A stretch of DNA of 64,000 nt from an uncultured Lachnospiraceae bacterium (GCA_947383945.1 CANDFH010000005.1:22791-86790), one strand, 5' to 3'; positions 33,651 through 42,504 are shown, counted from the stretch's first letter. A program made the numbers and translations. Notes: generated by a model from the letters alone, not told the origin.

Positions 33651-33734
33651 CACCGCAATTTCAGAAAACACAAACATAAAGAAATCCCTTGAAAACACTG
33701 GACTTTCAAGGGGTTTTCCAATCTCTTTCATTGT
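33651..33734. repeat. 84-bp direct repeat copy A; contains terminator hairpin CCCTTGAAA-N9-TTTCAAGGG
   Basis: About 89% identical to 42421..42504; lies immediately downstream of the last gene of the ABC/TCS module. Confidence 0.7.
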
Positions 33735-33837
33735 GTCATTGTCGATCTGCTCCAATGCATTTGCTTTATAAGCGTGTGGAAATGTGTCTGCTTTACGACG
33801 TTTTTTTCTTTTGCCGTCGTCTGGCAGATCATTCTAT

Positions 33838-36396
33838 TTATTCTGTTCTTAATCGCTCAACAATGCTCTGCTTTTCTAAATTCTTAAAACACAGAAATGG
33901 GATAAGCACCGCAAAAGCCAGGAGGATCGGGGTACAAATCATCAGCGGCATCAGAGTAAAATGGAAAGTGCTGAACTCATTGGCTGTTATGGCACGAACA
34001 CCGATCCCAACGGTCAGAGTGCTGATAATGTAAGAAACGATCAGCGTAATCGCTGCGTAATCCAGTCCTTCACAAATCAGCATCTTCCGCAGCTGACGCT
34101 TGGTCATGCCCACGGACTGAATCATGGCAAACTCTTTTTTGCGTGAAACAATGGCTGTAACCATAGAATTGATAAAGTTAAGCACACCCACCAGAGCAAT
34201 AATCACACTGATGGTATTTCCCATAACTGCCGACGCCTGTGTTTCTGTTTTATACTGCTCTGTTATGGTTTTGCGGGATGTCACAGGCAGACTGGTGTTT
34301 ATGGTCTTAGTATACACATCGAGCATCTCTTGTGCTGCGGGAATATGCTCATCGTCCACATTGAAGAACAGTCTTCGCAGCGTATTCTCCGGCCACTGCT
34401 GCCGGAATACTGAAGCAGGAATAATAAAGCTCATGCAGTGCTGATTTTGTACACCGCCTTCATAAGCTCCTTCCTCCACAGCTTGCAGCGGATATACAAC
34501 AGCCATTACCGTATAGGTGCGATTTTCAAGCGCAATACTGCTTCCAACGGTAGGAACAGGCAATGCAGTCTTTCTTTCTGTGTCTGTGGAATCTATGGCA
34601 GGACCAATAGCCAACACATAGTCGCCGCTGGCAAATTTTTCTGCATCATAGCTGCCGGAGAGCAAATATCTCTCATGCGTAATTGCATCCAGAGGGATAC
34701 CGTCCATTCCATACAGTACACCGATCACTTCACGGGTTTTCATGGCGTTTTTTATCTGAGCAGAACCGGACGAATCGTAAGTTGCCCAATCGTCCAGCAT
34801 TTCCTGTGTATAGAAGGCGCCGATATTCTGCACAGTCTCATCATCCAGTGTCAGTTTAAATTGATGAGAATATTGATGACCAATCGCTTCCAAACCAGCC
34901 AATCCTTCCACGGATGCCACCAGTTCAGCATTCAGGGTGAAACCATAAGGGTCATATCCGCCAATATAATCTGCACTGCTGCGATCATCCAGCTGGAAGT
35001 CACTGATCGTCAGCTCAAACAGGTATTTTTCCATATCAAAAGCAGCATTCTTAGCGTAGAAACAGCTGAGTAAAACCAACCCCAAGCTCAGAGAGCATAT
35101 AACTGTCACTGTCCGTTTTTTGTTCCGCCCCAGATTCGCCCAAGCCATACTGGTAATGGAAGCGCCATTCCGGGTGCGTTTGCTTTTCTTCTTGCTTGCG
35201 GCGGCATCGCTCATCCGCAGAGCTTCGATCGGAGAAACCTTACCAGCCAGCCTTGCCGGACGCAGGCAGGAAACCGTAACCGTCAGCCATGCAAAAAGGG
35301 CAGAGCCAAGGAAGATCACAGGATTGGAGGAAATCACAGCATTGCCTTCCAGTTGTCCCATCAGCACAGGAACCAACACTATGCCCAGCAGCCAGCCCAG
35401 AAGAAGACCCATTGGGATACCGATCACACACAGCCGGTTTGCCTGACCATAAATAAGTTTCTTGATCTGCTCCGTGGTAGTTCCCAGTGTTTTCAACTTT
35501 CCATAGAATTGGATGTCGGCAGTAACGCTGATCTGAAAGATATTATAAATAATCAGATAGCCAGCAAGAAACACCAGCACCATACCCAAATACATAGGAA
35601 TGCTTTCCTGCGCTGCGGTAGCATTCATCTCTGGTGAATATGCCAGATTCACGCCAAATTTCAAGTCCGTCAGTCCAGTGTCTGCCAAAATATTCTCCAT
35701 GGTGGTCTCAATATTACGGTCACTATGCAGGATCACTTGTGCGGTATGCAGACCTAAAATGCTTGTTTTTCCGTCAGCAACATAGTCACCGATCATCTCA
35801 TCCGCAAATTCCCGGCTTACCCAAGCCATGCTGGCATAGACAGATTCGTTGCCTTCCCAGAAACCGCAGAGGGTAAAGGTGGAGGCGGTTAACTCATCCT
35901 TTGCAAGATCCTTGCGCCATTCCAGCGTTATAGTTTCCCCCAGCTGATGGGGAATACCAAGGCGATCGAGGATTCGTGTGTCCAGAGCAATCTCATCCGA
36001 TGCTGTTGGCATTGTTCCGGTGGCAGGCATAGCAAAGGAATGCTTGGCATTGATGTCACTGCTCCAACGGATCTCAACCTGTTTGCCACCCAGCTTTTTG
36101 TTTTGTGCAAGACCAAGAACAAGGCTTTCTCCGGCTTCTGCAACATCGGGGTGATTCGCGATCAACGAAAACTGCTCTGCGGTGATGGTCTTAAAGGATG
36201 CTTGACCATCATAACCAGTTTGCCGGAATGTCATTTCCACCATGTTTTTGCTTATACTCTGTGCCAGGGTAAAGAGGGTGGTAAACATAATCGTAGTCAT
36301 TAAGATGGCGATGATCGCTACCAGGTTCCGACCTCTATTTTTCTTAAAAGTACGCTGATTCAGTGTTTGAATTGGTTTGAATACTGTTTTCATCAT
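33838..36396 (-). CDS. BceB/MacB-type ABC transporter permease with two FtsX domains (10 TM) and a large extracellular loop
   Basis: About 850 aa FtsX-like permease; start trimmed to MMKTVF (RBS AAGGGGGG). Confidence 0.8.
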   Translation of the reverse strand: MMKTVFKPIQTLNQRTFKKNRGRNLVAIIAILMTTIMFTTLFTLAQSISKNMVEMTFRQTGYDGQASFKTITAEQFSLIANHPDVAEAGESLVLGLAQNKKLGGKQVEIRWSSDINAKHSFAMPATGTMPTASDEIALDTRILDRLGIPHQLGETITLEWRKDLAKDELTASTFTLCGFWEGNESVYASMAWVSREFADEMIGDYVADGKTSILGLHTAQVILHSDRNIETTMENILADTGLTDLKFGVNLAYSPEMNATAAQESIPMYLGMVLVFLAGYLIIYNIFQISVTADIQFYGKLKTLGTTTEQIKKLIYGQANRLCVIGIPMGLLLGWLLGIVLVPVLMGQLEGNAVISSNPVIFLGSALFAWLTVTVSCLRPARLAGKVSPIEALRMSDAAASKKKSKRTRNGASITSMAWANLGRNKKRTVTVICSLSLGLVLLSCFYAKNAAFDMEKYLFELTISDFQLDDRSSADYIGGYDPYGFTLNAELVASVEGLAGLEAIGHQYSHQFKLTLDDETVQNIGAFYTQEMLDDWATYDSSGSAQIKNAMKTREVIGVLYGMDGIPLDAITHERYLLSGSYDAEKFASGDYVLAIGPAIDSTDTERKTALPVPTVGSSIALENRTYTVMAVVYPLQAVEEGAYEGGVQNQHCMSFIIPASVFRQQWPENTLRRLFFNVDDEHIPAAQEMLDVYTKTINTSLPVTSRKTITEQYKTETQASAVMGNTISVIIALVGVLNFINSMVTAIVSRKKEFAMIQSVGMTKRQLRKMLICEGLDYAAITLIVSYIISTLTVGIGVRAITANEFSTFHFTLMPLMICTPILLAFAVLIPFLCFKNLEKQSIVERLRTE

Positions 36397-36406
36397 GCAT
36401 CCCCCC

Positions 36407-41620: not shown

Positions 41621-42285
41621 ATATACCCCATACCCCGGATGGTTTTAATATAGGTATGATTGTCATTCTCGATCTTCGCCCGAAGCCGATTCATCGTCAC
41701 AGTAAGTGTGTGGTCATCAATGAAATTCCCATCACAATCCCACAGCCGTTCCAGCAAAAGCTGTCTGGTAATGATGTTGCCTGCATTCTCTGTCAATACT
41801 TTCAGCAACTTATATTCGTTGGGCGTGATCGACAGCTTTTCGCCGCCCCGCACGGCAGTCAGCGCGCCAAAATCAAGCAGAAGAAATCCGTCAGTCCAGC
41901 GGTCCGCATGAGTCATAGTAACTTTACTTGCTCTGCGGATGGCGACCTCTACCCGCCGCAAAAAAATCTGCATATGAAACGGCTTTGTAATATAATCCTC
42001 TGCGCCCAAATCAAATCCATTCAGCACATCCTGCTCTAAATCATTTGCTGTCAAAAAAATCACAGGAAGTTCCGGTTTGATTGCTTTTACCTCTCGACAG
42101 AGATCAAAGCCGTTGCCATCCGGCAGATTCACATCCATAATCACAAGGTCAAATGGATCCTCCTGCAAAAGCTGTCTGGCCTTCCGGCAGTTATACGCTG
42201 CCACCGTCAGATAGCCGTTACTGTCCAATTCAAAACACAGTCCGGCACTTAAGGCCAGATCATCTTCTATAACTAAAATTCTCAT
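41599..42285 (-). CDS. OmpR-family response regulator (BceR-like)
   Basis: MRILVIEDDLAL...DLVIMDVNLPDGNG receiver domain plus a winged-helix C-terminus. Confidence 0.9.
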   Translation of the reverse strand: MRILVIEDDLALSAGLCFELDSNGYLTVAAYNCRKARQLLQEDPFDLVIMDVNLPDGNGFDLCREVKAIKPELPVIFLTANDLEQDVLNGFDLGAEDYITKPFHMQIFLRRVEVAIRRASKVTMTHADRWTDGFLLLDFGALTAVRGGEKLSITPNEYKLLKVLTENAGNIITRQLLLERLWDCDGNFIDDHTLTVTMNRLRAKIENDNHTYIKTIRGMGYIWTGGKQ

Positions 42286-42420
42286 TGCTTATCACCTTCT
42301 CGCTTCTTATATCTGACGGGAAACACCATCTTTCACTTGCCTCTTTAAGCGTCATATAATCCATATTCATACCTCCGACAATCCACTCTATTATATTTCA
42401 TTTGCTAGAAGAATACAAGT

Positions 42421-42504
42421 CACTGCAATTTTAGAAAGTACAGACATAAAGAAAACCCTTGAAAATACTGGACTTTCAAGGGTTTTTCCAATCTCTTTTA
42501 TTGT
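42421..42504. repeat. 84-bp direct repeat copy B; contains the same terminator hairpin, downstream of rpsI
   Basis: About 89% identical to 33651..33734; CCCTTGAAA-N9-TTTCAAGGG followed by a T-rich tract. Confidence 0.7.

Follow-up and report, generated by a model that had tools for sequence, protein, structure and literature searches.

How did a six-gene sensor and transporter module come to lie directly behind a ribosomal protein operon, and why is it bracketed by two long direct repeats that carry the same hairpin? These questions are raised by a locus of an uncultured Lachnospiraceae bacterium (GCA_947383945.1, CANDFH010000005.1:22791-86790; the whole analysed stretch of 64,000 nucleotides is called the window below), in which rpsI, the gene for ribosomal protein S9, is followed by genes for a response regulator (RR), a kinase and two pairs of ATP-binding cassette (ABC) ATPases and FtsX permeases. 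On the reading developed here, to which we assign a probability of about 70%, the DNA between the rpsI stop codon and approximately position 33569 (possibly 33288) represents a decayed tandem array of integrative elements that target the 3' end of rpsI. All features of the rplM-rpsI region and of this island are given on the minus strand, which is the gene strand.

A repeat search across the 64 kb returned one two-copy family of 85 nt, with copy A at 33650-33734 and copy B at 42420-42504 as its only members in the window, aligned without gaps at 89% identity and spaced 8770 nt apart. A preliminary description of this DNA, prepared from the sequence alone, had reported two direct repeats of about 84 nt with a common hairpin, bracketing a co-oriented block of RR, histidine kinase, ABC, permease, ABC and permease genes; both observations are confirmed, with the unit now set at 85 nt and all genes between the copies on the minus strand. 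Each copy consists of a 22-nt spacer, the hairpin (33686-33712 in copy A, 42456-42482 in copy B) and 36 nt of distal sequence, and the hairpin core CCCTTGAAAAYACTGGACTTTCAAGGG occurs exactly twice in the window at up to three mismatches, against a chance expectation of 0.00. Both copies score as intrinsic-terminator-like on the gene strand, and their predicted RNA folds reach -21.7 kcal/mol (z -5.1) for copy B and -15.3 kcal/mol (z -1.9) for copy A. Hairpin B starts 29 nt past the rpsI stop codon, and the arm that contains it begins 7-29 nt after rpsI. With Rfam, nothing in the whole window reached the gathering thresholds, so no known RNA family accounts for the repeat. Copies A and B differ at eight positions, each of which is fixed across all 12 same-species sequences compared, in a species whose strains diverge by about 1%; these fixed differences fit two arms of separate origin better than a duplication in one event.

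The distribution of the hairpin beyond the window bears directly on its nature. A scan for the hairpin 27-mer across 185,579 species genomes, one genome per species, yielded 62 stretches, two of which come from the representative of this species (L012, L069) and both of these from this locus, while the other 60 come from 59 further Lachnospiraceae assemblies, nearly always one per genome. Oriented in the gene direction, 49 of the 61 hairpin copies elsewhere sit 29 nt past the rpsI stop codon; ten follow a right arm, that is, non-rpsI sequence ending in a mimic of the last rpsI codons (..AAGAGATAA); one, the second copy in L011, has no core and lies at a deletion junction; and one is too near the end of its locus to be classified. 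The hairpin thus goes with the 3' end of rpsI and does not form a dispersed family. The preliminary description had linked the repeats to the insertion site of the module, which agrees with the same arm being tied to rpsI elsewhere. It had also offered a dispersed, terminator-associated repeat family as an alternative, together with a copy count as the check. That count is now available within the limits of a representative genome and of one genome per further species, and it leaves hardly any room for a generic family resembling repetitive extragenic palindromes, BOX elements or miniature inverted-repeat transposable elements, in which the bracketing of the module would be incidental: a hairpin with conserved flanks is indeed present in many species, but the two copies in the 64-kb window are the two of the representative and share one locus, nearly every other genome has a single copy, all copies lie beside rpsI or an rpsI-end mimic, and no Rfam family is found in the window. 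Scanning IMG/VR viral contigs for the hairpin gave 0 matches, blastn of the arm region against phages gave none, and a megablast search of plasmids with the module was equally empty, so that nothing points to a phage or a plasmid as the vehicle.

The sequence downstream of the hairpin in other species identifies what the hairpin belongs to. In many of them it is followed by a conserved stretch, two to four repeats with an 11-nt period (GTAGCACACA and variants), a promoter and a small open reading frame (ORF; MDRTAYKNRHIKEHYDRINF...), the last being found in 21 of 52 loci whose length allows a judgement. Right ends of elements were also recovered; in these, a pair of arm repeats of this type precedes a small hairpin, which is separated by about 15 nt from the rpsI-end mimic. 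Recombinase genes lie inside such elements, namely tyrosine integrases (PF00589) beside a D5-type primase in L026 and L024, and a 222-aa resolvase-type serine recombinase (PF00239) in L052, L049 and L063. The same arm is followed by two-component system (TCS) and ABC cargo in L047, L060 and L046, and about 50 other species carry other cargo after rpsI. Complete units in L052, L035 and L014 run from rpsI through core, spacer and hairpin to a right arm and core, and are followed by a different terminator, with no second hairpin there; in L035 two such units stand in clean tandem, each with its own terminator. The one-ended position of the hairpin in these complete units indicates that the crossover takes place at the core and that the hairpin is element-borne. 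From these junctions, the hairpin CCCTTGAAAGTCCAGTRTTTTCAAGGG is best regarded as part of the element's leading arm and as a replacement terminator for rpsI; its place in the leading arm accounts for the single hairpin of most genomes, and two hairpins would signal a tandem array. A crossover at the hairpin itself (9-bp inverted arms around a 9-nt loop) was considered and rejected, as the complete elements of L052, L035 and L014 have the hairpin at one end only. An ungapped tabulation of where matches to the arm consensus end was likewise set aside, since it is confounded by 1-nt indels.

Several properties of these elements were recorded in their own right. In dozens of mouse-gut Lachnospiraceae species the elements after rpsI are very small, at 0.8-2.9 kb (L013-L066; for example L033 4788-5434, L052 2123-5050 and L035 906-4240), and share the hairpin arm, GTAGCACACA-type repeats of 11-nt period on both arms and the MDRTAYKNRHIKEHYDRINF ORF, which belongs to no Pfam family. 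With the same arms, some elements carry only the 222-aa resolvase-type recombinase and others a tyrosine integrase. A small reverse-strand cassette directly after the hairpin arm recurs in L011 (1213-2140), L023 (150-700) and L032 (4900-5050), and is toxin-antitoxin-like by its size and arrangement.

Seen against these elements, the far side of the module in the window contains more than a terminator-like repeat. When copy A is compared, together with 32 nt of its continuation, with the consensus leading (P') arm of other species, 59 of 68 positions (87%) agree; for copy B the match to the consensus extends over only about 34 nt. The continuation of copy A is a scar (33569-33649), in which what is left of the P' arm, including a single degenerate GTAGCACACA-type repeat (33614-33649), is fused to a right (P) arm (33587-33613) and then to a second core, AAGTTCTTTAAGAGATAA (33569-33586). 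This second core is an imperfect copy, matching at 15 of 18 positions, of the last 18 nt of rpsI (core copy 1, CAGTTCTCCAAGAGATAA, 42512-42529), rpsI itself occupying 42512-42904 (Pfam Ribosomal_S9, E 7e-51) downstream of rplM (42929-43363). A search for the rpsI-end core at up to three mismatches finds only these two matches in the window, where 0.04 would be expected by chance; a direct repeat of the target's 3' end, as expected of an attachment (att) core, is present at the far boundary (33569-33586 versus 42512-42529). Over the 63 nt that end in core 2 (33569-33631), identity with element right ends from L035, L052, L049 and L065 amounts to 81-86%, and the scar element as a whole (33569-33734) is bounded by att-type ends. 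Three features had been overlooked in the preliminary description: the second core, the scar of fused arms (33587-33649), and the extension of the homology between copy A and elements of other species beyond the repeat.

Beyond core 2, the stretch up to the next gene (33288-33568) contains a second terminator (33509-33537, folding at -20.7 kcal/mol), followed by a site resembling a promoter (33407-33435) and by a small ORF with a frameshift. It is homologous to the DNA directly 3' of rpsI in L042. The sister species L082 shares the genes from MVP to GerA, at 84-93% nucleotide identity, but its homology with the window begins only at position 33287. The stretch is either a displaced native downstream region of rpsI or a third remnant.

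These observations can be assembled into a proposed history. Elements would recombine within the last ~18 nt of rpsI. They carry their replacement terminator directly after the core; the leading arm comprises a 29-nt spacer, the hairpin, a conserved distal stretch and repeats of 11-nt period, and each element ends in a right arm with matching repeats and an rpsI-end mimic. Copy B would head the element that carries the six-gene module as cargo, and copy A would head a second element whose interior was deleted, leaving the scar of left and right arm together with the second core. On the basis of these alignments, copy B is taken to be the leading arm of the module-bearing element and at the same time the working terminator of rplM-rpsI, and copy A the leading arm of a second element stripped of its interior. 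As to the inferred order of events, two elements may have accreted and then suffered deletions, or two arms may have been joined by one homologous crossover, which is also a possible sub-step of the explanation by accretion.

A different account would have a circular or linear DNA with the module recombine at the native rpsI terminator, through a Campbell-type crossover via the ~85-nt segment or through an insertion that duplicated it, so that the repeats would be the two halves of one event. It draws on the sharp homology boundaries of copies A and B on both sides, on the absence of a right arm or core on the rpsI-proximal side of copy A, on the module promoter, which begins exactly at the end of copy B, and on L011, where a second integrase-less cargo, a toxin-antitoxin-like cassette of about 0.95 kb, lies between two hairpin copies. 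Weighed against these points are the complete units of L052, L035 and L014, which make the hairpin arm element-borne rather than native; the eight fixed differences between A and B in a species with about 1% divergence between strains; and the continuation of copy A over about 80 nt into element arms and a second core, which would not be expected of a plain duplication. In L011 the proximal junction of the second hairpin cuts through the remnant of a recombinase gene, which makes it a deletion junction and favours the deletion route. We therefore regard recombination at a native terminator as unlikely, and the earlier proposal that insertion of the module duplicated the native rpsI terminator is not supported, given the eight fixed differences and the match of each copy to the element-borne arm of 59 other genomes.

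The interpretation as a decayed array of rpsI-targeting elements has to contend with several opposing points. The junction DNA after the module (33735-33787) has neither right arm nor core, so the module-bearing unit is not bounded by att-type ends on that side, and the explanation has to postulate one or more undocumented deletions or a step of homologous recombination. No integrase, resolvase, relaxase or excisionase gene is found between 33288 and 42511. An empty site was not recovered, as a look-up with the exact rpsI sequence gave only module-bearing contigs. In L077 a related module lies 2 kb downstream of rpsI with no hairpin and no second core. The position of the crossover within the last ~18 nt of rpsI is deduced from a comparison of junctions, and the DNA after the hairpin is not consistently more conserved across species than rpsI (0.753 versus 0.738). 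Finally, the hairpin scan demanded an exact match at 26 of 27 positions, which diverged copies could escape, and the comparison genomes are almost all fragmented metagenome-assembled genomes, which makes the copy counts lower bounds. Greater conservation after the hairpin had been considered as proof of transfer; it held in a first subset, vanished in the corrected set and is not used here.

Related searches complete this picture. All 21 same-species contigs read carry the module, and the search for an empty site by way of MVP homologues led to the syntenic contig of the sister species L082, which stops 133 nt upstream of the MVP gene. No integrase or recombinase gene is present in the next 13 kb downstream of the island either. 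The 53 nt of junction DNA at 33735-33787 and the stretch 42285-42425 were compared with all fetched loci, which gave nothing informative besides promoter homology; strain L001 has lost about 60 nt from the stretch 33735-33827. With no recombinase left and the module-bearing unit devoid of its own right arm and core, the island is probably immobile and fixed in place, and in the absence of a recombinase of its own the window is classed as a decayed array and not as a functional element.

That the module is foreign is indicated along several lines. Its GC content of 0.46-0.53 stands against 0.40-0.43 in the flanks. Homologues of permease 1 occur at 85-94%, 80%, 70% and 60% identity, and the six-gene cassette is found elsewhere between radA/moaC and tsaE (L072-74), beside ackA/pta (L075) and between an aminotransferase gene and a GH2 gene (L076); the homology with L072 spans window positions 42314 to 33787, and no hairpin repeat is present in those loci. 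In L077-80 the cassette again lies downstream of rplM-rpsI, with an AlbA_2-type gene between rpsI and the RR gene. The module is 91.5% identical to that of L077 at the nucleotide level, compared with 72.5% for rplM-rpsI and 67-72% for the ecf genes in the same comparison, a contrast which implies that the L077 module is also an acquisition and which, together with the alternative loci, makes transfer between distant lineages clear. On these comparisons, the module is horizontally acquired, foreign cargo, as the preliminary description had held in treating it as an acquired insertion beside rpsI, and its occurrence near rpsI twice fits carriage by rpsI-targeting elements. Relatives with the module at this position and no repeats had earlier been named as an argument against insertion; L077 is partly such a case, and its identity contrast still speaks for acquisition.

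It is accordingly very improbable that the module is ancestral at the site and vertically inherited, with repeats that arose by local duplication or gene conversion and with no mobile element involved. The module is fixed in all same-species contigs, and a second lineage, L077, also has it downstream of rpsI, as this explanation would have it; yet the 91.5% identity of the modules far exceeds the 67-72.5% of the flanking housekeeping genes in L077, equally similar copies stand at unrelated loci, other cargo follows rpsI in about 50 species, and the base composition is unlike that of the flanks. An integron cassette was also rejected as a candidate: by eye, no attC-type core sites (GTTRRRY/RYYYAAC) were seen in the 85-nt unit, and the window holds no integron integrase.

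The surroundings of the related modules have features of their own. L077 has three GGGGTAAGTTA-type repeats (5880-5935) before an AlbA_2/Schlafen-type gene and, between permease 2 and AhpC, tandem repeats of about 97 nt (16130-16340), each with a promoter-like TATAAT. In L081 (8524-10291), an 87% identical module is followed by AAA_15/AAA_21 and RloB genes, a pair resembling OLD and abortive-infection systems, and these neighbours again suggest a variable island context.

What the cargo does can be approached through its gene order. The first operon (37326-42285), with intergenic gaps of at most 13 nt, comprises the OmpR-type RR (41599-42285), the HisKA/HATPase_c kinase (40583-41602), ABC ATPase 1 (39874-40569) and FtsX permease 1, a fused MacB-type protein of 845 aa (37326-39863), and is closed by a terminator at 37186-37205. 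The second transporter (33838-37078) begins after a gap of 248 nt behind permease 1 and consists of ATPase 2 (36407-37078) and FtsX permease 2, of 851 aa (33838-36393). The operon's promoter, TTGTAT-17 nt-TATAAT (42390-42418), was recognized by alignment with the distant homologues L075 and L076, to which it is common; it abuts the end of copy B and was unlisted in a consensus scan because its -35 hexamer matches at only three of six positions. After the promoter, a truncated small ORF (MDYMTLKEASERW..., 42263-42364), upstream of the RR start and overlapping it and with a homologous stretch in L075, looks like the remnant of a helix-turn-helix gene. At the other end, the module has its own degenerate terminator (33788-33827), which is intact in L072. 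Copy A therefore lies 54 nt past the module's own end, which corrects the earlier statement that copy A terminates the module.

The control region of the second transporter differs from that of the first. Its candidate RR-dependent promoter (37119-37182) consists of an inverted-plus-direct repeat box, AAGGTACAAAACCGTACCTTTGTTGTACCTT (37152-37182), followed after 24 nt by TATAAT (37122-37127). The box is unique in the window and is kept before the second ABC gene in four module homologues, down to 69% nucleotide identity, amid diverged spacers. No second RR box was found upstream of the RR gene, and transporter 1 shares its operon with the TCS and is not placed behind the box. With an identity of 59% between the ATPases and of 29% between the permeases, the transporter pair must be old, and the arrangement of one kinase and two pumps is kept down to about 60% protein identity; the earlier observation of two paralogous transporters with a single TCS is thus real and the arrangement conserved. 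From this architecture, a constitutive promoter would drive the RR, an intramembrane-sensing kinase and transporter 1 as the sensing partner, and the phosphorylated RR would bind the box and switch on transporter 2 as the effector pump. Its operation is most likely that of a Bce-type peptide-antibiotic system in which labour is divided.

The individual proteins conform to that model to different degrees. The kinase has transmembrane helices at residues 10-28 and 39-57, joined by a loop of about 10 aa, and no ectodomain; it aligns over its full length with BceS (8g3a_D; residues 22-341 with 14-320, E 4.6e-13), shows a weak full-length match to SapS and is the only part of the module that is Bce-like over its full length. 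The permeases, by hydropathy, have eight helices, with loops of about 217 aa and about 270 aa after the first and fifth transmembrane helices. An AlphaFold model of the permease (predicted local distance difference test score 76, predicted template modelling score 0.63) agrees with this plan, which reads helix 1, ectodomain, helices 2-4, cytoplasmic linker, helix 5, ectodomain, helices 6-8; the N- and C-terminal halves are homologous, and Pfam FtsX is matched twice in each permease. The ATPases are nearest to LolD, MacB and DevA, and the transporters have the FtsX/MacB (type VII) fold and ATPases of the MacB/LolD type. In a phmmer search with the permease, YtrF and LolC were matched, and BceB was absent even at E <= 10 although 8g3a was in the library. 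Foldseek with the permease model gave E. coli YbbP as the best match, over the full length (1.8e-17), and BceB as a weaker one (2e-10). These predictions describe the permeases as eight-helix, two-ectodomain, fused MacB-type proteins and not BceB-type ones, which counts against a Bce-type reading of the module. The preliminary description of BceAB-like pairs with a BceRS-like TCS therefore stands for the kinase and for the regulatory logic, and falls for the permeases on account of their eight helices, two ectodomains and lack of a BceB match.

A more far-reaching proposal combines two parts, which taken jointly we consider a long shot, distinctly doubtful. The first is that eight-helix, two-ectodomain transporters with an intramembrane-sensing kinase may form an uncharacterised family of peptide-sensing and detoxification systems, one transporter serving as sensor and the other as inducible pump, and that such a module family may have spread among gut Lachnospiraceae as cargo of rpsI-targeting mini-elements. 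The second is that the two core-less, hairpin-centred junctions, at copy A and at the second copy of L011, may be more than chance deletions and could reflect a second, hairpin-directed route by which integrase-less cassettes are captured or fixed at the site.

Elsewhere in the window, further features were recorded that lie apart from the island's own sequence. Beyond copy A, the MVP gene (30648-33272, minus strand; ~875 aa, with major-vault-protein shoulder and repeat domains) stands beside RtcB (29407-30624, minus strand); the protein has more than 5,400 homologues in the protein collection and is syntenic in the sister species L082, and in L083 a homologue of 70% identity has PcfJ and methylase genes as neighbours, of the sort usual in mobile elements. 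A MatE transporter gene (22344-23782, plus strand) is split into overlapping ORFs of 278 and 201 aa where L082 has one gene of 479 aa, and is probably a frameshifted pseudogene or the result of a sequencing error. The AT-rich interval 43400-44460 between truA and rplM (GC 0.29) contains an ORF of 180 aa (43732-44274, minus strand) of no Pfam family that varies among strains: L004, L008 and L012 have it, L002/L003 have a 50-aa ORF in its place, and L001/L007 lack it. Two paralogous genes on the plus strand (51704-53608 and 54962-56692), also of no Pfam family, share 300-nt blocks of 75-78% identity, and in one of them a tandem repeat (53031-53228) of five 33-nt units encodes a linker rich in Pro, Ser, Thr and Glu.

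The significance of the locus lies in several directions. An odd pair of long repeats finds an explanation as the footprint of site-specific accretion and decay at a ribosomal-gene hotspot, one that is heavily used in mouse-gut Lachnospiraceae by very small elements bringing their own rpsI terminator. Envelope-stress and ABC modules appear to travel between genera by means of rpsI-targeting elements; the rpsI-end mimic, the hairpin arm and the 11-nt arm repeats provide annotation markers for rpsI islands; and caution is advised in annotation, as an FtsX permease beside an intramembrane-sensing kinase need not be BceAB.

Comparison with known systems places both the cargo and its carrier. Like Bce modules, the cargo combines a kinase that senses within the membrane and has no ectodomain, an OmpR-type RR and a type VII (MacB-fold) ABC transporter in one locus. 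Like networks in which one kinase serves two transporters, it has one transporter transcribed together with the kinase and a second one that follows a putative RR box. Staphylococcus aureus BraRS, with BraDE and VraDE, is a case of one kinase and two transporters, and a network of the same composition was reportedly described in Enterococcus faecalis by Gebhard in 2014; the review PMC11009047 cites both. The permeases of the module, with eight predicted helices and two large ectodomains, are unlike BceB, with ten helices and one ectodomain; in Bce transporters generally, a single ectodomain of 200-250 aa lies between the seventh and eighth of ten transmembrane helices (PMC11009047). Closer in plan is E. 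coli YbbAP (PDB 9ge6/9ge7), to which the module permease is 12-13% identical in sequence and in which MacB-type units form a pseudosymmetric fused dimer that has two ectodomains of the Porter/Sabre type. YbbP has ten helices and two ectodomains (PMC12646458), including a linker pair of helices, TM5-6, in the place of which the module permease model has a cytoplasmic linker, and the partner of YbbAP is the periplasmic esterase TesA and not a kinase.

On the side of the carrier, rpsI is already an annotated integration site within the Lachnospiraceae: an rpsI-integrated integrative and conjugative element (ICE), ICE_RhoA2-183_rpsI, is annotated in Roseburia hominis, with an ICE more than 93% identical in Dorea formicigenerans (PMC12904643); that element is a full ICE. 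For elements related to ICESt1, an accretion-deletion model and cis-mobilizable elements (CIMEs) are referred to through Pavlovic 2004 and Bellanger 2011, as cited in PMC5357655. The window resembles CIME islands in having cargo between att-derived repeats and no integration and transfer genes, by way of accretion and then deletion. True CIMEs retain the two att sites and are open to mobilisation in cis, whereas the window lacks the internal core and right arm, so that excision of the module alone is unlikely and recombination is conceivable in principle only between the outer cores, 1 and 2. In streptococci, the 3' end of rpsI is a hotspot for integrative and mobilizable elements (IMEs) and ICEs, with several integrase families, long or short direct repeats, and frequent tandem accretion with decayed partners (PMC5357655; PMC5090054). 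Compared with these, IMESag-rpsI among them, the Lachnospiraceae elements belong to a different phylum-level lineage, are mostly 0.8-2.9 kb long, share a replacement-terminator hairpin and arm repeats of 11-nt period and show no relaxase, and the array in the window has no recombinase at all. Common to both are integration at the 3' end of rpsI, direct repeats of the gene end, unrelated recombinase families, and decayed tandem arrays and islands; the locus is a genomic island of a familiar kind, a new example of a known process rather than a new mechanism.

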